Below, in pieces: positions 5,090 through 62,768 of a DNA stretch of 64,000 nt. The DNA is from Candidatus Poribacteria bacterium (GTDB lineage: Bacteria; Poribacteria; WGA-4E; PCPOR2b): positions 6,379,757-6,443,756 of the forward strand of contig OZ220744.1 of NCBI GenBank assembly GCA_965116925.1, given 5' to 3'. A model generated the notes under the pieces. That model had not been told where the DNA came from and did no database searches. It was given only the letters and a program-made list of their open reading frames with translations. Positions within the stretch are counted from its first letter, which is position 1, and each line of letters begins with the position of its first letter. The position numbers and the translations under genes were made by a program.

Positions 5090-5265
5090 ATCTGTTACCC
5101 GTAGAATATGAAACGTGAAAGGTGAGATGTGAAAGGCGGAAACCATTGGTTCATTGGTACGGTCCGGCCTACCGTTACGGCGTTGGGTTTTAGAGCTCCG
5201 GTTCAACCCAATCTACGTGCGGCACGGTTGTCGCACCACTGAGGCTATGGATCGGGTGAGACGGC

Positions 5266-6228
5266 TTACCTATTAGATAGGGCAAGTTCTTCTTTTAACT
5301 GCAAGAGTTGTGCTTCTGGAAGATTGGTGATTTCAGAAATGAGCGTCATTTCCATTCCTTTGGCAAGCATTGCCTTTGCAGTTTCAATCTTCTCTTCAAT
5401 TCTGCCTTCCTGCTTGCCCTTCTGTTCACCCTCAAGCAGCCCTTCCTGCTTACCCTCACGCAAACCGTTTTGAAAAAAACGCTGCCTCTCCTTCTCTAAT
5501 GCTGTGACTAACATCGTCTTCACCTCCTCTTCAGTCCGATAAATGGACTCCAATGACTCATAATCGTCAGATTCAATTCGTCCGTGAAAAGCTAACTGCC
5601 TAAACCAGTTTAAGAACAGACTCACCGCCTGTCTATCCGCCTCCGCCGAAAACACATTCAGCAGCTCCGCCTCTAGCACATCTAAGTTGTAATGGGATTC
5701 TGCCAGAAACAACGTTGATACGATGTTTCGGATTTTTAACAACGCCTCCTGACTGTATTGGTTTTCAGCAATCAGGAAATACTGAAAATCTAACGCGAAC
5801 CTACCGAGTGGTGGTGTCCGCTCAATTAACGCCGAAAGATTGACCGGTGCCGTCCAACGTGCCTCTCCATTGTACAGCACAATTGGAAAGACCGCCGGCA
5901 GTTTGTTGACACCGCTGTTATTGACGAGAAAATCCATGTAAAAGTTGGTGATATAGTTCAGCACCCGCAACGCCATGAACGGGTCAACGGTAGATTGAAA
6001 CTCGATGAGAATATAAATATAGACCTCGCGGTCCTGAAACTGGATTTTGTAGATTAAATCACTCTCGGTTTCTTTGTAGTGTTCGGAGATAAAGGATTTA
6101 TCCAAAGGTTCACAGGTGTCGAAATCGAGCGAATGGACCCATTCTTGGTTGACGAAGGTTTCAAGGAGTTGTCGAAAGATGGTCCGATTTGAGAATAGTT
6201 TCTTATAGCCGCTGTCGTGAATATTCAT
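5266..6228 (-). CDS. Rpn-family recombination-promoting nuclease / putative transposase (PD-(D/E)XK, YhgA-like) with a Glu/Lys-rich C-terminal repeat tail
   Basis: Transposase_31-like N-terminal half (DLIYKIQFQDREVYIYILIEFQS...) and a DUF4351-like EGKQEG repeat tail. The ORF begins with GTG-ATG. Confidence 0.65.
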   Translation of the reverse strand: MNIHDSGYKKLFSNRTIFRQLLETFVNQEWVHSLDFDTCEPLDKSFISEHYKETESDLIYKIQFQDREVYIYILIEFQSTVDPFMALRVLNYITNFYMDFLVNNSGVNKLPAVFPIVLYNGEARWTAPVNLSALIERTPPLGRFALDFQYFLIAENQYSQEALLKIRNIVSTLFLAESHYNLDVLEAELLNVFSAEADRQAVSLFLNWFRQLAFHGRIESDDYESLESIYRTEEEVKTMLVTALEKERQRFFQNGLREGKQEGLLEGEQKGKQEGRIEEKIETAKAMLAKGMEMTLISEITNLPEAQLLQLKEELALSNR

Positions 6229-6231
6229 CAC

Positions 6232-6324
6232 TATAGTAGATTTGAGAATTAATTAGACATTGTGAACGAGCCCCGATAGACCGGGATTCACCGAATTAGG
6301 GCACACGGTGTGTGCCTACTACTA
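6232..6324. repeat. Partial copy of MITE-like family T (TATAGTAGATTTGAGAATTAATTAGACA head, ending in the hairpin gggcacacggtgtgtgcc)
   Basis: About 80 % identity to 23140-23233. The head matches the terminal inverted repeats (TIRs) of the elements at 23140-23346 and 29033-29320. Confidence 0.6.
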
Positions 6325-6433
6325 GCAACTTGAGTTAAGATACAGTAATTATACATTCTCCTGCCTTCACGAGTCAACCGAGAGAAGAAATAGATCGCTC
6401 AATATCGGGACACCCCTCTAAGTGGAAGGGCTA

Positions 6434-8176
6434 TCACACGATTACTTCCTCCAGCCCTGTTTTGAGGAGTTGTGAAAATCGTGAATTTGGGTCTCCGACA
6501 AGGCGTTCCCGCTCTCCATGCTCTTGGATTTCGCCATCTTCCAAGATCATTATTTCATTGACCCGTTCAACAGTACCGAGACGATGGGCAATGATAATGC
6601 CTGTTCGGTTACGGAGCAGCTTTTGAACCGCACGATCAATCTGTTGTTCGGTTGCCGGATCCAGTCGGGACGAAGGTTCGTCAAGGATAATGATTCCCGG
6701 ATCTTTGAGAAATACCCGCGCAAATGCGAGCAATTGCGCCTCTCCAGCGGAAAGCTCTCCAGAAGCGATTACAGTATCAAGCCCGTTTGACAGCGACGCA
6801 TACCATTCTGACAACCCCAGTTCTTCAATGACACTCAAAATCTGTGAGTCAGTGATTTCAGCGTTGAAAAGTGTGATGTTGTCCCGGACAGATGAATAAA
6901 AAAGGTGAACATCTTGCGTGACCAACCCCACATTTTGACGTAGGTTATCTTGCTGCACCTTCATTATCGGCATACCGCCCAGACGGATTTCGCCTATATT
7001 TGGCTCGTAGAACCGAAACAGTAAGCGAGTCATAGTTGTTTTGCCGCTACCCGTCCGCCCCAACAGACCGAGGACTTTGCCCGGTGCTAGGCTAAAGGAG
7101 ATCTTTTTTAGAACGGGCTCGCCTTCAGTGTAGTTGAATGTTACCCCATCAAATTCGATTGAGATTGCACCTGAGGCGGGCAGTGTTTCCGTTCCGTCTT
7201 GAATGTGAGCGGTTGTACGCTGCAAGGTCTCGATTCGTTTTAAGCCCGCTGTCGCCTTCTGAAGATCGTTAAGTTGGCGACCGATTTGGTCAAGCGGATG
7301 CCGGAACATAGCGGTATAATAGATGGCCATCATGACTGTGCCGATCGTAAACGTTCCTTCCTGAAAGAGATAGATACACATACTCATCGAAATCGCAAGT
7401 CCTAGGGCAAACATAATCGTCGTGGTTGCCCGCACAATCTCGCCCATAATCTGGGACCTCAGTACCCGTCTGTAAGCATCACTGTTGACATCGTAGAACC
7501 GATCCATCGTATAGGCGCTTCCACCGTTTGTCCGAATGTCTTCAATCCCAACCAGCCGCTCTTCTATAAAGCCGTACAGTTTGGAATAACCCTCTCGCTC
7601 GGCGGTGTACGCTGGAATGGCGACGCTTCGTATGAGGTTGCAGATGACAAACGCAATAATTACAAACGCTGTTAGTGCAATACCCAGCCGCAGATCCTCT
7701 CGGGAGAGTACGATGAGGACGCCAATTAGGAGAAAAGTGTTGCCGATAACCTGCAACACAAATTCCGAGAAGAAGTTTGAGAGTGCTGTTGTATCACCGT
7801 CCACGCGTTCAACCATCTCTCCGGGGGTATATTGGTGATGAAACGACATGTCGAGATTCAGACAGTGAAACGCTAAATTCTCTCGCATCCGATTGGTTAC
7901 TCGCCAACCTACATCCTGCCCCATATAGGAACTAATCAGCATGATAATTTGCCCAAAGATGCCAACTGCAAGGAATAACCCACCGGCGACAAACAGATTT
8001 CGGAGCGCGCCCCCGGCTTTTGCCATATCAATGAAGTCGCGAAGAATCCACGGACCGTACAACCTTAAACCAATCCCACCAAAAATGAAAACAGCAAGTA
8101 GGATCACCCGAAACCACAGGGGTTTAAGATAGTACGCAAGGAGTGAGATGTATTGTCTAAGTGGTACTCTTTGCAA
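6434..8176 (-). CDS. ABC transporter, fused permease/ATPase (type I exporter, MsbA-like)
   Basis: Six-helix transmembrane domain followed by Walker A GRTGSGKTT, the LSAGEAQ signature and Walker B ILDEPSS. Confidence 0.9.
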   Translation of the reverse strand: MQRVPLRQYISLLAYYLKPLWFRVILLAVFIFGGIGLRLYGPWILRDFIDMAKAGGALRNLFVAGGLFLAVGIFGQIIMLISSYMGQDVGWRVTNRMRENLAFHCLNLDMSFHHQYTPGEMVERVDGDTTALSNFFSEFVLQVIGNTFLLIGVLIVLSREDLRLGIALTAFVIIAFVICNLIRSVAIPAYTAEREGYSKLYGFIEERLVGIEDIRTNGGSAYTMDRFYDVNSDAYRRVLRSQIMGEIVRATTTIMFALGLAISMSMCIYLFQEGTFTIGTVMMAIYYTAMFRHPLDQIGRQLNDLQKATAGLKRIETLQRTTAHIQDGTETLPASGAISIEFDGVTFNYTEGEPVLKKISFSLAPGKVLGLLGRTGSGKTTMTRLLFRFYEPNIGEIRLGGMPIMKVQQDNLRQNVGLVTQDVHLFYSSVRDNITLFNAEITDSQILSVIEELGLSEWYASLSNGLDTVIASGELSAGEAQLLAFARVFLKDPGIIILDEPSSRLDPATEQQIDRAVQKLLRNRTGIIIAHRLGTVERVNEIMILEDGEIQEHGERERLVGDPNSRFSQLLKTGLEEVIV

Positions 8177-8282: not shown

Positions 8283-9701
8283 CTAGAGAATATCCGCTTT
8301 AATCATGTTCGTCGTTCCCGGCACATCCGCCGGTATCCCCGCGATGATAACCACCTGATCCCCCATCTGGGCAAGCCCTGATTTCAATACGGCTTGCTTT
8401 GCACTTGCAATCATCGTGTCTGTGTCAGGCGCGAATTCAATTGAGACCGGGAATGCCCCCCAAAAGAGCCCTACACGCCGGAGCGTAGTTTCATAAGGAC
8501 TGACAACTGCAATCGGTGCAGGTGGACGATATTTAGCCACTAGTCTCGCGGTTTGACCTGACCGTGTGCAGCAAATAATTACTTTTGCGCCAATTTCTAT
8601 AGAGGTGTGACAAGCAGCGTGTGCAATTGCATCCGGCACGTTCTCTTCAAGGGTGATGGGTTGGCGTTTGAAGTATTCTACGTAGTCGATGGTAGTTTCA
8701 GTTGTCGTGGCAACTTGAGCCATTGTTCGGACTGCGTCAGAGGGGTATTTGCCGATAGCCGTCTCTCCGGAAAGCATTAAGGCGTCCGTGCCATCGAGAA
8801 TCGCGTTAGCGATGTCTGTGACCTCTGCTCGTGTGGGACGTGGGTTGACAATCATTGATTCAAGCATCTGGGTTGCGGTGATGACTGGCTTACCCACAAG
8901 GTTTGCCCACTTGATAATCTCCTTTTGGATGAGCGGCACTTCAGGAAGGGGGACCTCTAACCCCAAATCCCCTCTAGCGACCATCACACCGTCTGCTTCA
9001 GTGAATATTTTATCTAAGTGATCCAATGCCTCACGTTTTTCTAGTTTGGCGATAATCGGTATATCGGAATCGTGTTGTTGAAGGATTGATCTAAGGTTCT
9101 GAAGGTCCGCGGCACTTCTGATAAAGGATTGGGCGACCCAATCAACGCCGTGATCAATTCCAAAGCGCAGATCCTCGACATCTTTTGGGGTTGGAATGGG
9201 AGTTTGTAGTGAGATATCGGGAACACTGATCCCCTTGTTTGAACGGAGCAGCCCACCGGCGATGACTTCGCAGATGATATCTGTGCTTGTAGTCGAAATC
9301 ACGCACAACTCAATCTCTCCATCCGCCAATAAAATGCGATTTCCCGGTTTAATGTCGGCAACCAATTCGGGATAGCTGATTGATACGGTGTTGAGATTGC
9401 CGACGATTTCCTGTGTTGTGAGAGTGAACTTTGCATTCGGGGATAACTCAATTGGCTCGTCCGAGAATTTGCCGATTCGCATCTTTGGTCCCGAGAGATC
9501 TTGCAAAATTGGTATTCTCACGCCGAGCTGCTTGGATGCTGTTTTCAGATGGGCGATGGTTTGTGCATGATCGGCGTGTGAGCCGTGGGAGAATGAAATT
9601 CTTGCGACATTCATCCCTGACTCAATCAGTGAACGTAACATTTCTGGTGAGCTGCTAGCGGGACCGATCGTACAAACAATATTTGTGCGTTTCCGTTGCA
9701 T
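8283..9701 (-). CDS. pyk: pyruvate kinase
   Basis: IVCTIGPAS N-terminus and typical pyruvate-kinase barrel and C-terminal domains, 472 aa. Confidence 0.9.
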   Translation of the reverse strand: MQRKRTNIVCTIGPASSSPEMLRSLIESGMNVARISFSHGSHADHAQTIAHLKTASKQLGVRIPILQDLSGPKMRIGKFSDEPIELSPNAKFTLTTQEIVGNLNTVSISYPELVADIKPGNRILLADGEIELCVISTTSTDIICEVIAGGLLRSNKGISVPDISLQTPIPTPKDVEDLRFGIDHGVDWVAQSFIRSAADLQNLRSILQQHDSDIPIIAKLEKREALDHLDKIFTEADGVMVARGDLGLEVPLPEVPLIQKEIIKWANLVGKPVITATQMLESMIVNPRPTRAEVTDIANAILDGTDALMLSGETAIGKYPSDAVRTMAQVATTTETTIDYVEYFKRQPITLEENVPDAIAHAACHTSIEIGAKVIICCTRSGQTARLVAKYRPPAPIAVVSPYETTLRRVGLFWGAFPVSIEFAPDTDTMIASAKQAVLKSGLAQMGDQVVIIAGIPADVPGTTNMIKADIL

Positions 9702-9829
9702 ATTATATTTTTTATGTTGGCTGCTATATGTTCCGAAAAATGTACGGTTATGGACATTCTATCAGGATTAATTACCCCGATCAAGCGAAAAAGCGGTAAA
9801 AAATTGGCACTTGATTTCAAAGATAAACT

Positions 9830-9858
9830 TTGCTACACTCTTTGAACGTTTCTATACT
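9830..9858 (+). promoter_or_regulatory. Sigma-70-like promoter candidate TTGCTA-N17-TATACT upstream of the histidine kinase gene
   Basis: -35 at 9830-9835 and -10 at 9853-9858, about 85 nt upstream of the ATG at 9941. Confidence 0.3.
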
Positions 9859-9940
9859 TGATAATTAGCATAAATTCTTTGGAAAATCGATCCTAGTATC
9901 TTCGCACTGATATCTCCAATAACTGATCTACAAACCATCA

Positions 9941-11713
9941 ATGATCTTTACTATCAACAAAATCCATCACAAGATCTTCCTCACTTATAGTTCTGTATTC
10001 CTTATCATAATCGTAGGAATCTTCGTGGTCGCACGTGTTGCTATCGTGCGGACTTTAGATAGTCAGATTCAAGAGGAGGTTCAAGAGTTCAGAACACGGC
10101 TTACCCACACGATAGATCTGCTTCGCCAAGATATTGAGGAAAAAGTTCAGCGCGAAATCAAGGACTGGCGTGTCGTTCAGGCGATCCGAAACCGTGAGCC
10201 GTATCCCCCTAGCATCACCGACAGTGTAATGGATATCTTGGAATATGGAACCGACGAGGGTATTGTTACTGCAAGTAAAGTGGGCAATGATGCTAACTTG
10301 CGCCATGGAGAAAAAGATCTGGAAGCGTTAGCTCTGGCCCGAAAACCGAAGCCAGAACCAGCATCGCGGCTCCGAACACCTGAAGCACGGACGACAATCG
10401 AGATTACATTGCCAATTCAAGCGGAGGGTAATTTTTTGGGATTTGTCACCGGCGGCTATTTTTTACATAAACATCTCAGCCAAGTCCTAAAGGATCTGAC
10501 ACTCCATCCGATCTTTCTCAAGGAAGGTACTCGCCTCGTACCGCTGAACGCCCCCGGCGAGACGATCCCAAAGTACCAACGAGAATCGCTCCTAGCGCAT
10601 GCAGATGACGCATATCAGACGTTTCCAAAGATTGAGCTAATAGGTGTGCCGCACAGCGTCAGTCGTATCCTAATTTTAGCCTCAAATATTGAGATGCAGA
10701 CTGAAGCGCAGCAGAAACCCCAAGTCGTTGGGCCAGAGTTGGTTCTTGCATACTCCCATCGGGATCAGATTGCACTACAACAGCAGCTTATGTCTATCCT
10801 ACTTATCATCGGTGGGGTTGGACTGATTTTAGTATACATTGTCAGTTATATCGTTGGACTTCAAATGACAAAACCGATCAATCAGTTAGCGGCGGGAGCG
10901 GCTGAAATTGCGTCAGGCAATCTTGAACAGCGGGTCGCCCTCCAAAGTCGAGATGAAATCGGTAGATTGGCGAGTGCTTTCAACCAGATGGCGGCAACGC
11001 TGAAGACGAGTCTAGAGAGACAGCTCGCTGCCGAGCGACATGCAGCGTGGGGAGACGCTGCCCGTTGGGTTGTCCACGAGGTTAAGAACCCGCTATTTCC
11101 CATTCGGCTTTCGATCGAAAACCTGCAGCGAGCCTATCAAAGTGGGGACACCCGACCAGCGATGTTTGATGAAATTTTTGTACAATGCACCGACATAGTT
11201 ATTGAGGAGGTGGAACGACTACAGCGACTGGTAGATGAGTTCGATCAGTTTGCACGAATGCCCCCTCCTAAACGGGAGCTATCTGATTTCAATCAAATCG
11301 TGCAGAACGTGGTGAGCCTGTACGCGGAATCCGTCGAGAACATTCAGATTCAGGCGAATCTTTCCTCTGATCTCCTTCCTCTCTCTCTTGATTCGGAGCA
11401 GATCACACAGGCGTTAGGAAATCTGATTAAGAATGCGATCGAAGCCATGCCTAACGGCGGAACACTGAACGTCTCGGCTCAATCGGTAAGTGAGACGAAA
11501 ATTCAGATCCAGATTCGAGACACCGGCATCGGTATGTCACCAGAGACGCTAGCACAGATTTTTGAACCCTATTATACAACAAAAGATACGGGGACAGGAC
11601 TGGGCATGGCGATTGTTCAGCGTATCATCACCGATCACGATGGAGAAATATTCGTCGAAAGCGAAGAAGGGGTTGGCACAACCGTTTCGATTGAATTGTT
11701 TCGTGAAACGTGA
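9941..11713 (+). CDS. sensor histidine kinase (N-terminal transmembrane segment, HAMP, HisKA with HEVKNPL, HATPase_c)
   Basis: H-box WVVHEVKNPL and G-boxes DTGIGM / GTGLGMAIV. Confidence 0.85.
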   Translation: MIFTINKIHHKIFLTYSSVFLIIIVGIFVVARVAIVRTLDSQIQEEVQEFRTRLTHTIDLLRQDIEEKVQREIKDWRVVQAIRNREPYPPSITDSVMDILEYGTDEGIVTASKVGNDANLRHGEKDLEALALARKPKPEPASRLRTPEARTTIEITLPIQAEGNFLGFVTGGYFLHKHLSQVLKDLTLHPIFLKEGTRLVPLNAPGETIPKYQRESLLAHADDAYQTFPKIELIGVPHSVSRILILASNIEMQTEAQQKPQVVGPELVLAYSHRDQIALQQQLMSILLIIGGVGLILVYIVSYIVGLQMTKPINQLAAGAAEIASGNLEQRVALQSRDEIGRLASAFNQMAATLKTSLERQLAAERHAAWGDAARWVVHEVKNPLFPIRLSIENLQRAYQSGDTRPAMFDEIFVQCTDIVIEEVERLQRLVDEFDQFARMPPPKRELSDFNQIVQNVVSLYAESVENIQIQANLSSDLLPLSLDSEQITQALGNLIKNAIEAMPNGGTLNVSAQSVSETKIQIQIRDTGIGMSPETLAQIFEPYYTTKDTGTGLGMAIVQRIITDHDGEIFVESEEGVGTTVSIELFRET

Positions 11714-16903: not shown

Positions 16904-17009
16904 AGGTTAAAAATATGATATATTTTTTTTGCAATTTTGTGACATAATGTAGGACAATATCATTGTATAATGTTTTAATTTCGCATTCAACAAGATTATA
17001 TAAAAAAAT

Positions 17010-17100
17010 GGCTCATGTTAAGAAATCGTGCAAAGAAACCGAGTTTTTCCGAAAAAACTCGGTTTCTCTTCGTATTTTGCACTTTCTTTTGATATGAACC
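17010..17100. mobile_element. MITE-like family P, copy B (91 bp, inverted relative to copy A), flanked by an 8-bp direct repeat AAAAAAAT (17002-17009 and 17102-17109)
   Basis: Palindromic core GAAACCGAGTTTTTCCGAAAAAACTCGGTTTC. Homologous to 12557-12649. Confidence 0.65.
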
Positions 17101-17129
17101 GAAAAAAATAAGGGATAAACGGAGCCAAC

Positions 17130-17918
17130 ATGATTACCGAGCAAGAGGTTCAACAGTTTTCCGAGATGGGCGCAGTGACAATCGATACGCCGTTGACGCA
17201 ACAGGAGCTCTCAGCGGCATCAGCCGTGTTTGATCGCCTGCTTCCGTTTAGTGAACCGGGGGCAGGAGAAGAACCGCGCTATCGGGTCAGCACAACGTGC
17301 ACCTTCTATGATCCAGAATTGTTGGACATCATCCAACATCCATTTTTTGAGGAAGTCGCCAAGCGTGCGCTACGAGCTGATGAGATAAGTTTCTTTCAAA
17401 CTGCCATCGTGACAACTTATCCATCGCCAAATACTCCCTTCAGCTTCTACCAACACGTGGATGTCCAATACAGCCTCTCGAATCTTGACGCTACTCCTAG
17501 GTATATGGTTTGCACCTTTTTTGTCTGGATAGATGATGTAACGGCACAACGTGCGCCCTTGATGTATCGTCCCGGCAGCCATCGACTGATAGCTAAATAC
17601 AGAGAAAACCGACCGGAGCTGAAAGGCAGCGTTCCGCTTGTCGGAGGTGTTATGTTGGATGGGCTGCCTGCACTTGGTTACGCTGAGGCAATTCCTGTGG
17701 TGGCGCGAGCGGGTCAGGCGACCGTCCTGACCACTGCGATGGTGCACGGCGCATCAACCAATGTGGACATCGTTCCTCGTAAGGCGATGGTTATTACCTT
17801 CACGGCGGCGGAGGTAGAGATTGGTCTGCCCCAGAATCAGGCGGAGACTAAGCGGGCTTATGACCGTGAGTTAAAAAGGCTTCTTCGTCCTGAACGAGCA
17901 CATATTGTTCCTGCTTGA
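17130..17918 (+). CDS. PhyH-family dioxygenase
   Basis: PhyH-like N-terminal helix (ITEQEVQQFSEMGAVTID) and His-containing jelly-roll motifs. Its similarity to the other paralogues is weaker. Confidence 0.5.
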   Translation: MITEQEVQQFSEMGAVTIDTPLTQQELSAASAVFDRLLPFSEPGAGEEPRYRVSTTCTFYDPELLDIIQHPFFEEVAKRALRADEISFFQTAIVTTYPSPNTPFSFYQHVDVQYSLSNLDATPRYMVCTFFVWIDDVTAQRAPLMYRPGSHRLIAKYRENRPELKGSVPLVGGVMLDGLPALGYAEAIPVVARAGQATVLTTAMVHGASTNVDIVPRKAMVITFTAAEVEIGLPQNQAETKRAYDRELKRLLRPERAHIVPA

Positions 17919-17973
17919 GAGGGAGGAATCTCCGAATCCCAACGCCAGATAGCCTTAATTTCACCATAACGAC

Positions 17974-18188
17974 TAGGGCAATCGCATATAGAAATTTTGC
18001 TTGACGGTAGCGCGAATTCGGGTCATTGCATCTGTTTATTTGACGCCCGAGGGCACCGAATCCGTTCATTTGGACGTGATTTCACACACTCATTGGAACA
18101 ACATCTACTGAATTGTTGGACAAATCATACAAAACAAAGGACTGCCTACGCTATAACCGTTTCAATCGCTTTCACATGCGATTGCCCT
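17974..18188. mobile_element. Internally deleted derivative (MITE, 215 bp) of the ISAs1-family IS at 21329-22585. It carries both terminal inverted repeats (left TAGGGCAATCGCATATAGAAA, right TTTCACATGCGATTGCCCT) but no transposase gene, and is inverted relative to the full IS.
   Basis: The left end matches the reverse complement of the IS right end over about 38 nt. The right end matches the IS left end (AGGGCAATCGCATGTGA). Confidence 0.7.
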
Positions 18189-18195
18189 CGACCTT

Positions 18196-18235
18196 CATCA
18201 AATACAGATGGAAATTTATACGTACTCATGTTATA
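18196..18235. repeat. 40-bp direct repeat R (CATCAAATACAGATGGAAATTTATACGTACTCATGTTATA); the second copy is at 21288-21327
   Basis: The two copies are identical 40-mers. Each abuts an IS-type end: the MITE right end and the IS left end. Confidence 0.8.
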
Positions 18236-18662
18236 TATGGACAAAATCAATGATGTGGTGATTTGAATATATACACTGAAAAACACGACACACTGCCATT
18301 ATCGCCGTCGGTGTCTTTGGAGGTAGATTGAAACCTCTTGTTAATTGCGATTCTTGCTGTCTTGTTTACCTCTCTTTTCTGTGCAATTTTTTCACACGCT
18401 CGTAAATTTTGCACAATAAATTGCGCGTACTCAGACAGGTTTTACAGTTTCCCCCCTTGTGTTTTTGACTCTTCCGAGATTCGCGCTAGTTGGTACAATT
18501 CTTGCTTAAAGCCTTGTAGTTCGGCGATTTATCGCCGTAGGACACCATTTCCAACGCCCGATGAATCGGGCAACTACAGCAGGAGTACCATCAAGGATCT
18601 CGTAGAGAACAACGATCGTTGTTCCCTACTGAAGTGCGTAACTCCTAAGGAGGATAATTAAA

Positions 18663-19733
18663 ATGCCTGAAATTCGAGTTGCCGTTGTTGGTATCGGAAA
18701 CTGTGCATCTTCTTTGCTCCAAGGTATTGAATACTATCGAGATGCCAAAGAGGATGAGTTCGTTCCCGGTCTGATGCACGTTAAGTTTGGACCCTACCAT
18801 GTGAGTGATGTTAAAGTTGTTGCAGCTTTTGATGTAAATAAGAACAAGGTCGGGCTGGATGTTGCTGATGCGATTTTTGCCGAAATCAACAATACCATAA
18901 AATTCTCAGATGTGCCAAAGACCGGCGTGATTGTTCAGCGTGGTGCCACGATGGATGGGTTTGCCAAATACTACCATGAGACGGTCGATGAATCGCCGGC
19001 TGAAGTCGTTGATGTCGCTGAGATTTTGCGCGAAAGTCAAGCCGATATTCTCATCAATTATCTACCTGTTGGCAGCGAGGCAGCAACAAAATGGTATATG
19101 GCGCAGGCGTTGGACGCCGGTTGCGCTGTTGTCAATTGTATGCCTGTATTCATCGCAAAAAATGACGAATGGCGTGCAAAATTTGAAGCCGCAGACTTGC
19201 CTATCGTTGGAGACGATATTAAGGCGCAATTCGGAGCCACTATCGTTCACCGTACGCTAGCAAAATTGATGAGTGACCGCGGCGTGAAACTTGAACGCAC
19301 CTCTCAATTGAACGTTGGCGGAAATATGGATTTCAAAAACATGCTGGAAAAAGAGCGGTTGGAATCCAAACGCATCTCCAAGACGGATGCCGTTGTCTCC
19401 CAACTCAACCATGAGGTCGCACCGAAAAATGTCTATATCAGTCCCAGCGATTACGTGCCCTTCCTCGAAGATCGGAAATGGTGCTATCTCTATCTCGAAG
19501 GAACCGCATTCGGTGATATTCCCGTCCGGGCTGAATTCAAATCGGAGATATGGGATTCGCCCAATTCGGCGGGTGTAGCGATTGACGCGATTCGTTGCTG
19601 CAAAATTGCACGGGACCGCGGGATCAGCGGTGCCCTTTATGGCCCAAGTGCTTACTTCATGAAATCACCACCACGTCAATATGCTGACGCCGAAGCCTTG
19701 GCGATGGTGGAAGATTTCATCGGCGGTAGATAA
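18663..19733 (+). CDS. ino1: myo-inositol-1-phosphate synthase (archaeal/bacterial type)
   Basis: N-terminal Rossmann [13 protein letters not shown], the conserved LNVGGNMDF region, and a strong RBS TAAGGAGGA; 356 aa. Confidence 0.8.
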
Positions 19734-19844
19734 GGGATAGCATAGGGAACGCAGATCTGCGTTCCCTACTTGCAGTCGAATCCATGGGAAAGCATAGCCA
19801 TATTTTGCTTTCCCATTTTTATTATTTTGGTAAAGGAGTACGAG

Positions 19845-20194
19845 ATGCCACATTTTCGCGCCATTCACACGATTAAACTAAAGCCGCATGTTGAACGCGA
19901 ACAGTTTGAGGATTTTATGCTACATCAATTTCTACCTACAGTTCGAGCGCTGCCTAACTGTCTGAATGTCGAGCTACTCAAAGGGTACAGTGGAGATCTT
20001 GCCGGCTTCGCACAATCCGGCACAATTATATCTGGATGACGCTCTGGGAAAGTGTGGAGGCGAATAACGCTGTTTGGTCAAGAGAAGGCGTCCACCGCAC
20101 ACCGGACGAAATATTGGAAATTAACGCCAAACTCCATCATTATGCGGCGAACTATTCGCTAGTCGGCGGGTTTACCGTAGAAGCAACGGTCTAG
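19845..20194 (+). pseudogene. Small alpha+beta-barrel-like protein (possibly ABM/Dabb-like, about 116 aa) broken by a -1 frameshift near 20034-20038. It has the RBS AAAGGAG.
   Basis: Reading frame 1 gives MPHFRAIHTIKLKP...SGTIISG and then a stop. The -1 frame continues WMTLWESVEANNAVWSREGVHRTPDEILEINAKLHHYAANYSLVGGFTVEATV without interruption. Confidence 0.4.
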
Positions 20195-20276
20195 GTCATG
20201 AATCCACAATGAGATTTGGGTTATTCTTAGATCCAGTCCTGCAATATATTGAACCTACTTTTATCACCATCAGTGA

Positions 20277-21272
20277 TCCTCAAACCCGCTCAATCCAACG
20301 GGAGCATTCGTGGGGCACTGGTCATACCACCTGTTGGAGATTTCACTTAGTGGGGAAATTAAGCCATCGCAGGCACTGGTCAAGCCGCCGATGATTTTCA
20401 ATATCTGGCATCAATACACCAGCATCGAACCAATGTGCTCAATCCTTGGGGAAGCAGCGGAACTGGAAACCAGATCTAATGTCCTTACGGCAAACATTGC
20501 GGCAGGATACCCATACGCCGATGTCCATGAAATTGGTCCTGCTGCTGTCGTTGTGACCGACAACAATCCACAACTCGCCCAAACAGAAGCCGAGCGGTTA
20601 TCGAATATGTTGTGGAATGTGCGTGATCAACTGGACGTCAACCTGCCAGATGCAGCAGCAGTCGCACAAGCAATACAGAGCGAGTCATACCCTGTTATAT
20701 TGGTCGAGATGGGAGATAACATCGGGGGCGGCTCGCCGGGAGACAGTACATTCATTTTAAGTGAACTGGTGAGACAGAAAGTGGATGGGTTCGTCTGTAT
20801 CCTCTATGCACCACAAGAGGTGGAGGCGTGTATTCAGGCGGGGGTTCGCGGGAAGGTTGACCTGACTGTGGGTGGGAAATCGGATGACCTACACGGCTCA
20901 CCGGTCCCAATCCGTGGGCGTGTTCGTCTCATTCACGACGGCTACTACGAGGAGACAGAACCTCGCCACGGCGGTGGAAGATACCAAGATCAAGGTATCA
21001 CGGCAGTTGTCGAAATGGAAGGGAAGAGCCTGATTGTGCTAACGAGCAAACATCAAGTACCATTCAGTCTACATCAACTCTTCAGTTTGGGGATTGATCC
21101 ACGGCAAATGAAGTACATCGTTGTCAAAGCTGCTATCGCCTATCGTGCAGCCTATGAGCCTATCGCAGGAAAGATTATTGAAGTAGATCCCCCCGGACTG
21201 ACCGCGGTAAATCCGCTGCATTTTACGTATCAGAGTGTGCGGAGACCAATCTTTCCATTGGATTCAATGTAG
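20277..21272 (+). pseudogene. M81-family metallopeptidase (MlrC-like), 5'-truncated: only the C-terminal two-thirds is present, about 330 of an expected ~500 aa
   Basis: An MlrC C-terminal region is present. There is an in-frame stop at 20274, the DUF1485 N-terminal domain is missing, and the only possible start is a GTG. Confidence 0.5.
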
Positions 21273-21287
21273 CATCTAACTCGAATC

Positions 21288-21327
21288 CATCAAATACAGA
21301 TGGAAATTTATACGTACTCATGTTATA
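21288..21327. repeat. Second copy of the 40-bp direct repeat R, immediately left of the IS left end
   Basis: Identical to 18196-18235. Confidence 0.8.
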
Positions 21328-21328
21328 A

Positions 21329-22585
21329 TAGGGCAATCGCATGTGAGATTTTAGAATAGCGTAGATAAGACAGTAATTAAGTAGTCGGTGTCCCATGCGG
21401 CTTTCAATCGTTTGGTGGCAACCCCGACCTTGGCTGAGGGTTCCCCCTTGAGTAGGTTCAGTGCAATCCGTCGAAGTATGGCGAAGTTTTGACTGCCATT
21501 TTCTTTACGGATACGACACCTATCTTCATCAAAGGCAACATCTAATACCCAATGACATGAGTTTTCAATCGACCAATGGGTTTGAATAGCGTTAAGCAGT
21601 TGGTCAGCCTCGCCGGGCAACGACGAGAGATAGTATCGAGATTTCACCGTAGTCTGCCCATTATGTTCGCGCTGGGCAGTGACCTTCACCACTGAATTGA
21701 GATTGACAAAGGTTTCACTGCCTCTCAACGGTGCAATCAAAGCAGGGTCCGCAACACGGATAGCAGTTCGCGTCTCAATGCGCCCGTGGTTGCCATTGAT
21801 TGTCTGAGCGGTGTCGGTTTGCACATCGGGTAACTGATTATCGGCAATGCCATCAAACAGCAGTTTGACATCTTCATACAGTTGTCCTTGATTCGCTTTC
21901 AATGCTAACACATAATCCGCATCGGCATCGACAATCTGTTGAGCAATAGGCGGGTGACATCCCATCGCATCAATGGTCACAATACAGTCTGAGAGTGTCA
22001 ACAACTCCAGTAATGGTGGAATGGCTGGTATCTCATTGGAATGGGCAGCGACTTTCAGTTGACCCAGTGTCACCGATTGTGCTGATGCCCATGCACTGAC
22101 AAGGTGAATCGCACCATGGTCGGTCAAGCTATCATAAGAACGACGCAGGCGTTTACCATCAACAGCAACCACTTGACCATCTGTCACTTTGATAACCTGT
22201 TTTATCCAATTGATGAAACAATGCTCAAATGCAACGGAGTCAATTAAACCAAAGACTCTACTAAAGGTGTCGTGCGATGGAATACCGTTAGGTAATTTCA
22301 ATAAACCAGACAACCACTTAGATTTCGCATGACCAAATGATTCGACAGCCACCCAGCTATCAGCACCACAGATGACCCCACAGATAGCGATGACAACCAT
22401 ATCCAGCAATTTATGACGTATCCGATTCTTGTCTGTTCGGGGGTCAGGTAAGTCAGAAAAATGGGATTCGATTGAGCTTATCGGTTGATTCGGCATCTTA
22501 GCGACTCCTTGGCTTTGAGGATGCCTTATACATTACCTCAATTTACAACACTGTCAAATACTATTTTTTATATGCGATTGCCCTA
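21329..22585. mobile_element. ISAs1-family insertion sequence (1257 bp) with 17-bp imperfect terminal inverted repeats TAGGGCAATCGCAT(G/A)T(G/A)
   Basis: Left end TAGGGCAATCGCATGTGAG at 21329 and right end TATATGCGATTGCCCTA ending at 22585. It holds a single transposase ORF. Confidence 0.85.
21351..22496 (-). CDS. ISAs1-family (IS4-superfamily, H-repeat-associated-type) DDE transposase
   Basis: 381 aa with the N-terminal DLPDPRTDKNRIRHKLLDMVVIAICGVICGADSW typical of ISAs1 transposases, followed by a DDE core. Confidence 0.85.
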   Translation of the reverse strand: MPNQPISSIESHFSDLPDPRTDKNRIRHKLLDMVVIAICGVICGADSWVAVESFGHAKSKWLSGLLKLPNGIPSHDTFSRVFGLIDSVAFEHCFINWIKQVIKVTDGQVVAVDGKRLRRSYDSLTDHGAIHLVSAWASAQSVTLGQLKVAAHSNEIPAIPPLLELLTLSDCIVTIDAMGCHPPIAQQIVDADADYVLALKANQGQLYEDVKLLFDGIADNQLPDVQTDTAQTINGNHGRIETRTAIRVADPALIAPLRGSETFVNLNSVVKVTAQREHNGQTTVKSRYYLSSLPGEADQLLNAIQTHWSIENSCHWVLDVAFDEDRCRIRKENGSQNFAILRRIALNLLKGEPSAKVGVATKRLKAAWDTDYLITVLSTLF

Positions 22586-22781
22586 CCATAACGACATTGC
22601 ATCTCAACACACGTCAGAGTATAATACAAACTGCTGACAGTCATGCTATCCACTTGTCATTACCATACATTGCACCCCAGCATTTACACCCACGGTTGGT
22701 CGTAGACTCCTCCGATCTGATTGGAGTCCACCAAAATCGAGATCGGAACGGAGAGAGATTTCCCAATCCTGACCCTTTTTT

Positions 22782-22999
22782 CGTTGGCATAGCGTTGGCA
22801 TTGATTGGTGTTCCTTTGGTATAGCGTTGGCATAGCGTTGGCATTGATAGATGAGCAGATGAAGCGGCTAAAATCGGTTCGGAGCCATGCTACCGTTGGC
22901 TTCCCAGCATTTTCACCCTGTAGGTGAGGTTTACCCAACTCGCCCCCGATCCCCCAAACTTTTTTTTCTGTTGGCATAGCGTTGGCATTAATAGAAGGA
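22782..22999. repeat. Cluster of three irregularly spaced 23-mers, GTTGGCATAGCGTTGGCATTGAT (at 22782-, 22830- and 22971-). Two of them are preceded by a T6-8 run.
   Basis: Each repeat contains TGGCAT-N5-TGGCA, which resembles a sigma-54 -24/-12 element. The spacings are irregular (33 and 108 bp), so this is not a CRISPR array. Confidence 0.55.
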
Positions 23000-23139
23000 T
23001 CCTTATGCGTTCCTCTCATTTAGTTTTTCTGTCGATTGCACACTCTTCCGATTGAATCAGAGCCCTCGAAAATCGGGATTGAAATAGAGAGGATTTCCGA
23101 ATCCCGACACATCGCCCAGATAAGCAAAAAACCGAAAAC

Positions 23140-23346
23140 TATGGTAGATCTTAGAATGAATTAGACACGATGAACGGACCTTGATAGATCGAGGTTCACG
23201 GAGTGACGGCACACGGAGTGTGCCTACTACTATTAATGTCTATTTATGATGCATTTTAAAAATAAATGGATACTTTCGCTCTCCGGTAGGTGCGGTTTCC
23301 TAACCGCCCGGTTTGAAGTGTCTCATTAATTCTCAGATCCACTATA
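23140..23346. mobile_element. MITE-like family T element (207 bp) with terminal inverted repeats of about 28 bp, TATGGTAGATCTTAGAATGAATTAGACAC ... GTGTCTCATTAATTCTCAGATCCACTATA
   Basis: The ends are imperfect reverse complements of each other. The flanks are compatible with a TA dinucleotide duplication. It is related to 29033-29320 and to the half copy at 6232-6324. Confidence 0.6.
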
Positions 23347-23448
23347 AATGCCAATGAGTATAAGCAAGCTGGTGAACAACAGCGAATTAGGTATTGGGAT
23401 CTACGGAAGAGTCTGTGGCACTTCATTAATCACGACATTGTAATTGCT

Positions 23449-24981
23449 ATGAGTGAAAACATCAAAACTGATCAGGGACGGGTTTCGGATCCGTGTGTGA
23501 TGGTCATATTCGGTGCTTCAGGGGATTTGACGAAGCGCAAGTTAGTGCCAGCCCTGTACAACCTTGCCCAGAACGGACTGTTGAACGAAAACGCTGTGGT
23601 TGTCGGGTTTGCGCGCAGAGAAAATAGCCACGATAATTTTCGTGCCCAGATGACCGAAGCAATTAAAGCATTTGGCACAACTGCGTTTGATTCATCGCTC
23701 TGGGAACGGATGGAGAAACGGCTTTATTATCATCAGGGCGATTACGACAATGTAGACGATTATAAACGTCTTGCAGAATTGCTGAAGCAGTTGGATGGGG
23801 AATGGGGAACAAACCGCAACTATCTCTACTATTTCTCAACTCCCCCAAGTTCTTTCGGGGCAATTTCCGACAATTTGGGGAGAGCTGGACTCGCAAAACC
23901 CGAAAATAAAGCGATGTGGCGCCGGACTATCGTTGAGAAACCGTTTGGACATGACTTGGATTCTGCCAAACTTCTGAACCGCTGTTTGCTTGAGACTTTT
24001 GATGAAGAGCAGATTTACCGGATTGACCATTACTTGGGGAAGGAGACTGTACAGAATATCATCGTTTTTCGGTTCGCTAACGGCATTTTTGAACCGACGT
24101 GGGACCGTCGCTATATTGATCATGTGCAGATCATGGTTGCTGAAAGCATTGGCATTGAAGGGCGTGGTGCATATTACGAAGAATCAGGGGTGCTGCGCGA
24201 CATGATTCAAAACCACATGTTCCAGTTGTTGTCGTTGGTGGCGATGGAGCCTCCAATCTCCTTTGAGGCGGATGCGGTACGAGATGAGAAGGTGAAGGTG
24301 TTGAATGCGATTCGTCCGATGCGTCCCGAAGATATTATCTCCAATACGGTGCGCGGACAGTATAGTGACGGGATAGTAGATGGCGAACGGGTAATTGGAT
24401 ACCGCGAAGAACCGGGGGTTTCGCCTACTTCAGAACGGGAGACTTATGCTGCGCTGAAACTCTTTATAGAAAACTGGCGATGGGCGGGTGTACCGTTTTT
24501 CTTACGGTCTGGAAAGAGATTAGCCAAGCGCGACACACAAATAGTAATTCAATTTCGGAGTGTTCCCCACCTTCTCTTTCGCGGTAGTGCAGAAGAGCAG
24601 TTAGAGGCAAATCGACTGGTCCTCCATATCCAACCTGACGAGCGCATCACCATCCGATTCCAAGCGAAGATTCCGGGCCCGACGGTCCGTCTGACCCCCG
24701 TTGATATGGATTTTCGGTACGAAGATTTGGCAGGGAGCAGCCCCGCAACTGGGTATGAGACGTTGCTATACGACTGTATGAACGGCGATTCTACGCAATT
24801 CCATCGTGCGGATATGGTCGAGGCAGCGTGGGAGATTGCAACTCCTATCTTGGATGTTTGGGAAGCCTTGCCTCCTCGTGATTTTCCGAACTACGAGGCT
24901 GGAACGTGGGGACCGAGTCCTGCGAATGATCTTATTGGAAAAGATGAACATGGACGCCGGTGGCTGAATCCCGATGTGTGA
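23449..24981 (+). CDS. zwf: glucose-6-phosphate 1-dehydrogenase
   Basis: NADP-binding GASGDLTKRKL, the active-site RIDHYLGKE motif, 510 aa. Confidence 0.95.
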   Translation: MSENIKTDQGRVSDPCVMVIFGASGDLTKRKLVPALYNLAQNGLLNENAVVVGFARRENSHDNFRAQMTEAIKAFGTTAFDSSLWERMEKRLYYHQGDYDNVDDYKRLAELLKQLDGEWGTNRNYLYYFSTPPSSFGAISDNLGRAGLAKPENKAMWRRTIVEKPFGHDLDSAKLLNRCLLETFDEEQIYRIDHYLGKETVQNIIVFRFANGIFEPTWDRRYIDHVQIMVAESIGIEGRGAYYEESGVLRDMIQNHMFQLLSLVAMEPPISFEADAVRDEKVKVLNAIRPMRPEDIISNTVRGQYSDGIVDGERVIGYREEPGVSPTSERETYAALKLFIENWRWAGVPFFLRSGKRLAKRDTQIVIQFRSVPHLLFRGSAEEQLEANRLVLHIQPDERITIRFQAKIPGPTVRLTPVDMDFRYEDLAGSSPATGYETLLYDCMNGDSTQFHRADMVEAAWEIATPILDVWEALPPRDFPNYEAGTWGPSPANDLIGKDEHGRRWLNPDV

Positions 24982-28936: not shown

Positions 28937-29032
28937 CCGATGCCTCCTCTCTCAATAACCTTTGGTCCGAGTTAGTGAGGGTTTGGTTCAAAAGTCCATT
29001 CATGAACCAATGAACTAATGCACTAAGGTATT

Positions 29033-29320
29033 TATAGTGGATCTTAGAATTAATGGGACACTTCAAACGGGTGCGGTTAGGAAAACGGAACTACCGTTCT
29101 CCCGTTTGGTAGGCACTGTTTCCAACTGTGCCTATTCGGTGCGGTTGAATGAAAATTAAAAAAACAGTTCGGTAATTTGCTAGCGACGCCGGCGCGGTTT
29201 CAAACCGCGCCTACCGTATGTTTCGAGGAAAATAGGGATTACCGATTTAAATACTTAAACTTCATCAAACCGCACCTACCGGTGGGTGAGAGTGTCTATT
29301 TATTTTTAGAATTCACTATA
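29033..29320. mobile_element. MITE-like family T element (288 bp), with terminal inverted repeats TATAGTGGATCTTAGAATTAATGGGACAC ... GTGTCTATTTATTTTTAGAATTCACTATA
   Basis: Inverted termini are homologous to 23140-23346. Internal palindrome GCGCGGTTTCAAACCGCGCC. Confidence 0.6.
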
Positions 29321-58542: not shown

Positions 58543-59085
58543 TTACCCTTGGGATCGTCGTCCTGGATCTCGATAAATAACACGGCCGCGTGTTAAATCG
58601 TAAGGCGACAGTTCGACAAGGACTTTATCTCCCGGCAGAATTCTGATGAAATTCTTCCGCATTCTGCCAGAGATGTGTGCCAGGATCTCATGTTTATTAT
58701 CCAATTCAACCCGAAACATGGCATTGGGTAGGGTTTCGATCACTGTCCCTTGTACCTCGATTTTGTCTTCCTTGGCTCGGACTCGGGATTGGACACCATC
58801 TCTGGTTTCCTGAGTCTCTTGCTCTGCGCGAACCTCAATCTTATCCTTACGAAATTCACGCTTATTTTTCTTTTTATTTCTGGTTTTTCCTGCGCCTGGT
58901 GCGGGACCTCTACCTTGCGCTGGACCTCTGCCCTGTGAAGGTCCTCTACCTTGTGAAGGTCCTCTGCCTTGTGCAGATCCCCTTCCTTGTGAAGGTCCTC
59001 TACCTTGTGAAGGTCCTCTACCTTGTGCAGGTCTATTTCTATTTGGCGATGGGCCTCTTCCTTGTGTAGGTCTTTTGCCTCTCAC
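58543..59085 (-). CDS. infA: translation initiation factor IF-1 homologue (C-terminal 72 aa) fused in frame to a ~108-aa Gly/Arg/Pro/Lys-rich N-terminal extension containing (QGRGPS) repeats
   Basis: The C-terminus [70 protein letters not shown] matches IF-1. There is no in-frame ATG, GTG or TTG between the extension and the IF-1 domain. Confidence 0.7.
58896..59075. repeat. About nine tandem copies of an 18-bp unit (CCTTGTGAAGGTCCTCTA) encoding the hexapeptide repeats of the IF-1 N-terminal extension
   Basis: Direct tandem repeats are visible in the sequence. Confidence 0.8.
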
Positions 59086-62018: not shown

Positions 62019-62129
62019 TTAGGATGTTACTTCCTTTTTCTAATGGAGTTTTATAGGAGATTGCTGTCGAGCAGTTTTGAAAAATGACTCGTAATACACT
62101 GCACTGTACGGAACGCGGATCTGCGTTCC

Positions 62130-62768
62130 TTACTCCGCTTGAGTCAGCCGCTGCTCAATTAACGAGCGAATATAGTCTTTAGCGGTGTCTCCGGTCAATT
62201 CACCGCTGAGAATGTCGGTCACTTCAAATTCCGCTAAACGCAAGGTTGGTTTCAGTCCATGCAACGGCGGTAGCCAATCTCGGAATGTATCGAAAAAGGC
62301 GCGTTGTGCAGCTCGGCCGTTAATAAACGGAAAATCTGCTGTCTTTCGTCGAAAACGATCTGTCCCCTTCTGAATCGCCATCTCTTGATGTTTTACACAC
62401 AATTGGAGGTATGCGTGGCGATCAAATCCTAGAGCCAAGTCTTCCGAATAAAAGTCCAAAGTTATCTGACGAAATACTGTAAAATGTTGTAACTCGTCAA
62501 ATTCAAAGATAAAATTGTAGGGCGCGGGGAAATAGGCATCGGGGGTTAAGTATCCATCTGCTTTTGTGGATAAGCCCTCCCAATCACCGCCCATCTTCTC
62601 AAAGAGGTTGACAATTCTCGGATAATATTCACCGAAATGGGCTGGGGACGGTTTGTTTATCAGCCAATCGAACTGAGCACGCCGTTCAGCAGGAACCCCC
62701 AACACCTCCTCAACGAGCGCGATGATGCCGATTTCAAGACGCATGTTATGCGACGGCTCCTCCACCAC
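62130..62768 (-). CDS. hypothetical protein (212 aa)
   Basis: It is an ORF only. Its stop overlaps a GGAACGCGGATCTGCGTTCC palindrome. Confidence 0.4.
   Translation of the reverse strand: MVEEPSHNMRLEIGIIALVEEVLGVPAERRAQFDWLINKPSPAHFGEYYPRIVNLFEKMGGDWEGLSTKADGYLTPDAYFPAPYNFIFEFDELQHFTVFRQITLDFYSEDLALGFDRHAYLQLCVKHQEMAIQKGTDRFRRKTADFPFINGRAAQRAFFDTFRDWLPPLHGLKPTLRLAEFEVTDILSGELTGDTAKDYIRSLIEQRLTQAE

Follow-up and report, generated by a model that had tools for sequence, protein, structure and literature searches.

The stretch of DNA analysed here (the window) comprises 64,000 nucleotides of contig OZ220744.1 (positions 6,379,757 to 6,443,756) of a Candidatus Poribacteria bacterium and is part of a 6.6-Mb contig of a 12x long-read metagenome assembly (ENA) of sponge-symbiont Poribacteria. 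In the spacer between a PhyH-like gene and a G6PD gene, we identified a unit of about 4.6 kb, in which an intact gene for myo-inositol-1-phosphate synthase (ino1) and its neighbours are enclosed by two unequal mobile elements, namely a short element resembling a miniature inverted-repeat transposable element (MITE) on the left and a complete insertion sequence (IS) of the ISAs1 family on the right. Alignments of elements and loci were done with Biopython. The features of the unit are given below in window coordinates; IRL and IRR denote the left and right type of inverted repeat, R a direct repeat, and J a junction within the cargo.

17964-17973, no strand: left copy of the target-site duplication, CCATAACGAC, adjoining the outer tip of the MITE
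17974-18189, plus strand: MITE-like non-autonomous element of 216 bp, IRL-type end outward, IRR-type end inward
18190-18195, no strand: filler of 6-7 nt, (C)GACCTT, between the inner tip of the MITE and R
18196-18235, plus strand: left copy of R with the -35 box TGGAAA, running on into a native-like 5' leader (18236-18275)
18276-18647, no strand: insertion of 372 bp between the ino1 promoter and its ribosome-binding site, marked by an alignment break against native loci
18663-19733, plus strand: ino1 (myo-inositol-1-phosphate synthase, PF01658), 356 aa, intact, probably a xenologous second copy
19845-20194, plus strand: conserved small gene, 116 aa long in relatives, here interrupted by a 1-nt deletion near 20020
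20347-20348, no strand: junction J, linking the last spacer base ahead of the epimerase start codon to the M81 gene at about nt 540
20348-21272, plus strand: fragment of an M81/MlrC-like peptidase gene, 3' two-thirds, frame open
21288-21328, plus strand: right copy of R (TGGAAA, 17 nt, TATAAT), ending in the IS
21329-22585, minus strand: ISAs1-family IS of 1,257 bp, IRR end toward the cargo, IRL end outward
22586-22595, no strand: right copy of the target-site duplication, CCATAACGAC, adjoining the outer tip of the IS

The right arm proved to be a full ISAs1-family IS, as the original prediction had stated. Both terminal repeats are present, and its single and intact transposase open reading frame (ORF; 21351-22496, minus strand, 381 aa) matched the ISAs1 family transposase model NF033564 of NCBIfam with 400.4 bits over model positions 2-314 of 314, at a cutoff of 70 bits, as well as the Pfam domains PF13808 (DDE_Tnp_1_assoc, 112 bits) and PF01609 (DDE_Tnp_1, 73 bits). 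The terminal repeat, TAGGGCAATCGCAT, is perfect over 14 nt and was found in the window at the four element ends only, one of them with a mismatch at the tip. Elements of this family are described as having terminal repeats of 14-22 bp starting with CAGGG and a 10-bp direct repeat (PMC11946415). With one DDE transposase carrying a DDE_Tnp_1_assoc domain, and a size in the range of about 1.2-1.3 kb, the IS resembles ISAs1 and the Frankia elements Francci3_2330/2941 from the same source, and both the length of its repeat and the 10-bp duplication agree with the family, while its tip reads TAGGG instead of CAGGG (PMC11946415). CAGGG versions of this type of repeat are present in three of the fetched loci (L078, L087, and L103).

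The left arm had been taken for a 215-bp derivative of the same IS that arose by internal deletion, which we could not uphold. The element is 216 bp long and has both terminal repeats, but its similarity to the IS is confined to about 20 nt at either end. Since its interior could not be aligned to the IS, we refer to it as MITE-like, and an origin by internal deletion is not demonstrable. The MITE is inverted relative to the IS, which places the two IRL-type ends, with ATA after the 14-mer, on the outside of the unit and the two IRR-type ends (GTGA) toward the cargo. At its inner tip, the MITE reads GCCCTC in place of GCCCTA, and this tip is followed by the filler, for which no match to the right-hand spacer CTCGAATC or to any relative's spacer and no extended match in native loci was detected. 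We also considered CGACCTT as a remnant of an earlier MITE site in neighbouring genes and rejected this, as the 7-mer is present there without extended matches. No second copy of the left-arm MITE was found in the fetched loci, JGI metagenomes, or viral contigs.

The terminal repeat itself was encountered far more often. The variant TAGGGCAATCGCAT was located at 48 places in JGI metagenome contigs on ISs as well as MITEs, its carriers being elements of about 1.21-1.24 kb and miniature elements of 141-214 bp; thus, this repeat variant is widespread and has non-autonomous partners. One of these copies (L082) is flanked by a perfect 10-bp duplication, and, by reading of the flanks, three others (L087, L092, and L098) are one mismatch and a fourth (L064) is one indel away from it. 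The miniature elements from JGI all end in GCCCTA and have interiors unrelated to the left arm, and the sequence common to the 48 places and the window is the repeat of about 20 nt only, with no copy of the window's IS or MITE among them. In four of the 48 (L054, L055, L066, and L070), the flank ends with TAGG, TAGGG, TAGGGC, or TAGGGCA right before TAGGGCAATCGCAT, which suggests insertion into or beside repeat-like sequence, that is, nested copies.

The borders of the unit could be determined to the base. The 10-mer CCATAACGAC stands directly before the terminal repeat of the left element and, in a second copy, directly after the outer end ...ATGCGATTGCCCTA of the IS, and the identical 10-mers that had been reported to abut the outward-facing ends were read at both positions. 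A frequent occurrence of this 10-mer by chance was not seen, since it was counted exactly twice in the window at a chance expectation of 0.07, and none of 100 shuffles reached two. Neither arm carries a duplication of its own, as the MITE is flanked by CCATAACGAC and CGACCTTCAT, and the IS by CATGTTATAA and CCATAACGAC; the perfect 10-bp duplication encloses the entire MITE-cargo-IS unit. Its outer ends TAGGGCAATCGCATATAGAAA and TAGGGCAATCGCATATAAAAA are 95% complementary over 21 nt in inverted orientation and, judged from their sequence, should be valid substrates for the transposase of the IS. The duplication around the unit, its absence at the single arms, and the adjacency of PhyH and G6PD in relatives all agree with the proposed movement of the whole unit in a single event, and one composite transposition is the best reading of the duplication and the arms.

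With regard to this adjacency, the flanking PhyH-like gene revealed relatives of 82-95% in 16 Candidatus Poribacteria genomes; G6PD is the next gene after PhyH in 14 of these, usually with a spacer of about 190 bp. Neither ino1 nor the IS of the window was detected near PhyH in any of the 16 relatives, including the case of an ino1 gene at the same locus without IS ends, which had been named as a possible counterexample. Clearly, the insertion is the derived state. With regard to the empty site expected in related genomes, absence of the unit was seen at the level of the locus only, with PhyH and G6PD adjacent in 14/16 and the unit in 0/16; the exact uninterrupted site was not found, and a search with the flanks joined in silico gave nothing above background, whether among all the loci fetched or in the remainder of the window. 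The exact transposase, ino1, and flanking proteins were recovered on the window's contig only.

The surroundings of the insertion are rich in repeats. The composite landed within a repeat nest, a host-specific spacer of about 600 bp (17919-17973 and 22596-23136) that contains GAGAGGATYTCCGAATCCCGACAC-like units and CGTTGGCATAGCGTTGGCATTGAT repeats, similar motifs of which occur in L013. The PhyH-G6PD spacer also seems to be a recurrent landing site, as two of the 14 genomes with the adjacency harbor mobile DNA in it, namely MITE-like inserts of about 440 bp in L013 (8787-9394) and an IS of about 1.3 kb with helix-turn-helix and DDE_3 (IS630-like) ORFs in L020 (8775-10240).

The gene content of the cargo was as predicted, with an intact ino1 gene preceded by a ribosome-binding site (AAGGAGGA), a frameshifted small gene, and a 5'-truncated M81 gene. 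The product of ino1 matched PF01658 with 117 bits and TIGR03450 with 550 bits; as the latter lies below the equivalog cutoff of 638, it was not assigned to the mycothiol-type equivalog. Homology searches resulted in 8000 homologues at E<=1e-30, the closest with 95% over 100% of the length. Based on family and orthologues, the gene is predicted to encode a myo-inositol-1-phosphate synthase. No Pfam family was matched by the small gene. Its 1-nt deletion was determined relative to three relatives and could also be an assembly error, since the window comes from a 12x long-read assembly in which frameshifts are also apparent in the native small and epimerase genes of the host. The M81 fragment covers positions 175-289 of 290 of the Pfam domain DUF1485 and MlrC_C and is devoid of the first approximately 180 codons. 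A search against Rfam revealed no match in 17000-24000.

These genes do not stand in their native order. In the native context, a divergent AP-endonuclease gene is followed by M81 (490 aa), ino1, the 116-aa gene, two epimerase genes, and GDPD, and the host's own locus shares the order M81-ino1-small-epimerase with 15 loci fetched from other contigs (L004-L008 and L044-L053). In the window, this order is swapped, ino1 and the small gene preceding the 3' part of M81, so that 18647-20300 aligned to native ino1, the small gene, and the downstream spacer, and 20347-21329 aligned to M81 from about nt 540 to the stop codon and on into the M81-ino1 spacer. Both parts meet at J (TTTCACTTAGTGGGGAAATT), an illegitimate junction and the closure point of the permuted segment, with a microhomology of at most 4 nt. 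From these alignments, the cargo is a circular permutation of a native segment of about 2.74 kb with a terminal redundancy of 40 nt.

This redundancy is R, a perfect direct repeat of 40 nt (18196-18235 and 21288-21327) near the inner end of the MITE and at that of the IS, which had been missed in the original prediction. R constitutes the ino1 promoter (TGGAAA, 17 nt, TATAAT), is homologous to the M81-ino1 spacer of relatives, and differs from the host's own native promoter at 4/40 positions by count of the alignment. The MITE precedes the left promoter copy at a distance of 6-7 nt. On the right, promoter and IS overlap by one base: the promoter-like site at 21301-21329 (score 10/12, extended TG) closes with a T that completes the -10 hexamer and is at the same time the first base of the IS.

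The insertion of 372 bp that separates the left promoter from the ribosome-binding site is absent from every native locus examined. It partially matched L013 at 8879-8951, where the insert ends with ...ACTGAAGTGCGTAACTCCTA, and it may be a partial element, its left end being without a matching repeat. Its right end ...ACTGAAGTGCGTAACTCCTA and an internal hairpin, GTAGTTCGG...CCCGATGAATCGGGCAACTAC, resemble the MITE-like insert in the PhyH-G6PD spacer of L013. Palindromic hairpins resembling repetitive extragenic palindromes (GTAGGGAACGCAGATCTGCGTTCCCTAC and variants) were observed at 18603-18630, within the 372-bp insertion, at 19743-19770, just 3' of ino1, and at 62107-62134; none is followed by a T-run.

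With regard to the origin of the cargo, it was compared with the host's own locus (L102). This locus was traced via an epimerase fragment on the same contig in the cluster listing, lies about 5.6 Mb away on this contig, and encodes M81 (490 aa), ino1 (356 aa), the small gene, and epimerase. At the nucleotide level, the two halves of the cargo share 88.6% and 87.6% identity with L102, which is no closer to the cargo than other species are. The two ino1 genes share 89.5% of their nucleotides and 339/356 aa, and the synonymous divergence (dS) between cargo and host amounts to 0.54 for ino1 and 0.49 for M81. Compared to the native M81 of the host, the M81 fragment revealed a ratio of non-synonymous to synonymous change (dN/dS) of 0.10, functional orthologues having 0.09, which, together with the open frame, indicates that it diverged as part of an intact gene. 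A neighbour-joining tree of ino1 DNA unites the native gene of the host and that of L004 as sisters with 99% bootstrap support to the exclusion of the cargo, which forms a separate deep branch inside the M81-ino1 clade. By comparison, the two copies of R and the two copies of the duplication are identical at 50/50 positions, and the rearrangement and insertion are thus recent relative to the divergence of the cargo. A recently duplicated copy of the native host locus was rejected as the source of the cargo on the basis of the divergence from L102, the dS values, and the tree.

The closest ino1 homologues, with 93-95% aa identity, stand in the fixed M81-ino1 context. No closer donor was found, the best database matches being 95.2% for ino1 and 91% for M81; among viral contigs, there was no match to the terminal repeat, and ino1 was only 62% identical. 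At five positions that are invariant otherwise, the cargo ino1 carries private replacements, which may reflect relaxed constraint or a long unsampled branch. Based on divergence, tree position, and recency, the cargo would represent a second copy of xenologous origin that was captured recently from a related but unsampled lineage of Poribacteria, about 11% divergent from the host. The suggested acquisition of inositol-phosphate biosynthesis was therefore borne out in part: a copy of ino1 was gained, but not the pathway, since ino1 is a conserved resident gene of the clade and the native M81-ino1 locus L102 is retained. The gain consists of a xenologous ino1 copy that is rearranged and redundant.

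Several native loci showed peculiarities of their own. In L102 (9238-10423), the frame of the small gene continues into that of the epimerase, and the first epimerase gene is split into ORFs of 228/243 aa and 140/163 aa, either by true pseudogenisation or by indel errors of the 12x assembly; in L050, another 12x contig, the YmdB gene is split. L045 harbors mobile elements at 5445-6440 and 9822-10733, where a transposase gene (DDE_5/DDE_Tnp_1) separates ino1 from the small gene, and an IS605-type OrfB/TnpB gene follows GDPD in several loci (L044, L047, L048, and L051 9565-10701). In L103 from a more distant member of the Poribacteria, whose ino1 is 85% identical, ino1 follows three PhyH genes and not M81; a tandem array with a period of about 60 bp lies between ino1 and the small gene (6280-6600), and a solitary CAGGGCAATCGCAT repeat stands just after the latter (7603-7616).

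Altogether, we consider it likely that the unit is a hybrid composite of a MITE and an ISAs1-family IS that was inserted once into the PhyH-G6PD spacer, with a 10-bp duplication, and that brought along a foreign ino1 cargo already permuted. As the MITE has no transposase, that of the IS would have acted on the two outer IRL-type ends, moving the unit in one event, while the cargo would have been rearranged into its circular permutation before moving. The permuted cargo with R at both inner ends points to a head-to-tail duplicate or a circular intermediate. Within this explanation, we tentatively prefer a head-to-tail repeat (concatemer) of the donor segment, which would have existed as a tandem duplication with junction J or as a multimeric circle. 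In the donor or on a vector, the MITE would then have inserted just upstream of the promoter in one repeat unit, and the IS at the -10 box in the next, which would be tolerable with the gene duplicated. The DNA between MITE and IS would have become the cargo that the two elements then mobilised.

A distinctly less probable version takes the cargo as the footprint of a circular intermediate, in which an end-joined foreign fragment, closed at J, would have been captured between the MITE/IS pair via recombination at the promoter or an unusual reaction of the transposase at the inner ends. If true, this would reveal how ISAs1-type elements can domesticate foreign DNA circles that do not replicate, and would be the first mechanistic clue for the family. 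Two related schemes were rejected. If the inner ends had formed a circle by inside-out transposition, a 10-bp repeat would be expected to adjoin both inner tips, and not 40 nt plus filler, and a cointegrate formed by a replicating IS predicts two IS copies in direct orientation.

Among the competing explanations, capture of a circle by a single crossover of the Campbell type fares best, though we regard it as unlikely. A foreign circle closed at J and carrying the same promoter would have recombined at R with an already existing composite of MITE, promoter, and IS. This would account for the exact circular permutation with its 40-nt terminal redundancy, for a microhomology junction as expected for an end-joined fragment, and for two identical copies of R of the donor type, and the product would be interconvertible with the small composite through loop-out at R. 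However, 40 nt is generally close to the minimum length for homologous recombination. Two insertions around the promoter, with 47 bp between them, would still be needed and, together with formation and integration of a circle, add up to more steps than the concatemer model demands; neither the small composite nor the circle was observed.

Derivation of the cargo from an old duplication within the host genome, in place of horizontal acquisition, seems quite improbable. The cargo shares the clade-specific M81-ino1 arrangement with the host, no donor was identified, and the private replacements in ino1 could reflect long relaxed evolution. On the other hand, the native ino1 of the host groups with that of L004, which is another species, and leaves the cargo outside; the truncated M81 is unrelaxed and free of stop codons despite its dS; the identical copies of R and of the duplication make the rearrangement and insertion young compared to the divergence; and each of the other loci fetched for the clade has one copy of the arrangement, with ino1 near PhyH in 0/16 loci.

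Slightly less probable still is a resident MITE with a 10-bp duplication of its own, to which the IS and the cargo were later joined at the inner tip by end-targeted or one-ended transposition. The irregular inner junction with its changed tip base and filler would fit this, and the flanks of L054, L055, L066, and L070 hint at insertions beside repeat-like sequence. Yet the outer tip of the IS would have to join the exact phosphodiester that once bordered the MITE tip, which is automatic in the composite model, and the MITE alone was present in no relative examined. An assembly artefact, in which a chimeric join placed DNA of a co-occurring strain between repeats, is very improbable, since, despite the low coverage of 12x and several apparent frameshifts in the assembly, a chimera would not yield exact element tips at a perfect 10-bp repeat or a coherent permuted cargo, the contig is reported under two sample records, and the 4.6-kb unit is generally shorter than typical long reads.

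Returning to the insertion of a hybrid composite with permuted cargo, five points weigh against it. First, the A-to-C change at the inner tip and the 6-7 extra nt mean that the junction between MITE and R may not be a clean transposition joint. Second, the concatemer model requires both elements in the same promoter region of about 50 bp in two units, a double hit that is coincidence unless the region is a preferred target; for ISAs1 elements, there is some indication of preferred target sites or reuse of sites (PMC11946415). Third, horizontal transfer was deduced from divergence, tree position, and recency without a matching source, the donor lineage being unsampled. Fourth, the target 10-mer lies in a host-specific, repeat-rich spacer of about 700 bp that is absent from relatives, so that an exact empty site is not findable and absence can be stated at the level of the locus only. 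Fifth, no second copy of the unit, the IS, or the MITE was found in more than 100 fetched loci, JGI, and viral contigs, which may reflect sampling; with a single insertion at hand, we infer its mobility as a unit.

Further repeats were noted elsewhere in the window. A second MITE family with terminal repeats TATAGTGGATCTNAGAATTAATNAGACA is represented at 23137-23346, with related copies at 6230-6324 and about 29027-29320. The first of these copies lies in the G6PD promoter region, where the native -10 context TGATTAAAT of relatives is replaced by CTATAAAT. At 58888-59049, we observed an 18-bp tandem array of at least 9 units like (C/T)CCTCT(A/G)CCTTGTGAAGGT, probably a coding repeat on one strand, and a dispersed repeat, GTGAAACGTGATGCGT(A/G)AAACGTGA, occurs in both orientations at 5108, 11703, 11717, 30396, 51244, 58435, and 58465.

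The unit documents, to the base pair, what appears to be gene movement between related lineages of an uncultivated phylum of sponge symbionts, and its vehicle would be a hybrid MITE/IS composite from a poorly studied IS family. It also illustrates that a metabolic gene flanked by ISs can be a redundant xenologous copy, which corrects the attractive inference of a pathway gain. For annotation, it follows that genomes of this clade can hold two ino1 genes of different history, of which the cargo copy behind the 372-bp insertion may be decaying. The permuted cargo with a promoter at both ends offers a testable footprint of how cargo is loaded, from a tandem duplicate or a circle.

Compared to known systems, the unit is a real but fairly ordinary composite transposon with an architecture of the Tn10/Tn5 type and a miniature arm. 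To our knowledge, the mechanism of the ISAs1 family is uncharacterised, and composite transposons built on it were not reported in the literature searched, the searches not having been aimed at that question. As is generally known for the composites Tn10/IS10 and Tn5/IS50, the terminal elements are inverted, the transposase would act on the outside ends, one duplication surrounds the unit and none the single arms, and the cargo is unrelated to transposition. In contrast to these, one arm is a 216-bp element that lacks a transposase and has only termini of about 20 nt in common with the other arm, an IS of the ISAs1 family. The duplication measures 10 bp, and instead of a resistance or catabolic module, the cargo consists of part of a housekeeping-type locus in permuted order, apparently from a related lineage. 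Tn3-derived miniature elements with inverted repeats (TIMEs) were shown experimentally to mobilise the DNA between them and form composite-like structures (PMC4133298), and the unit shares with them a short non-autonomous inverted-repeat element as an arm. While TIMEs have Tn3-family repeats of 38 bp, duplications of 5-6 bp, and two miniature arms served by a transposase in trans (PMC4133298), one arm of our unit is an autonomous IS, its repeats are of the ISAs1 type, and its duplication is 10 bp. Cointegrates, IS26 translocatable units, and Campbell-type circles are generally similar to it in appearing as a linearised circle with permuted order and a direct repeat at the opening point. Those products show either directly oriented IS copies together with repeats as long as a target duplication (8-10 bp) or a dedicated attachment site, whereas the arms of the unit are inverted and unequal, and the repeat at its opening point is a 40-nt promoter with 6-7 filler nt on one side.

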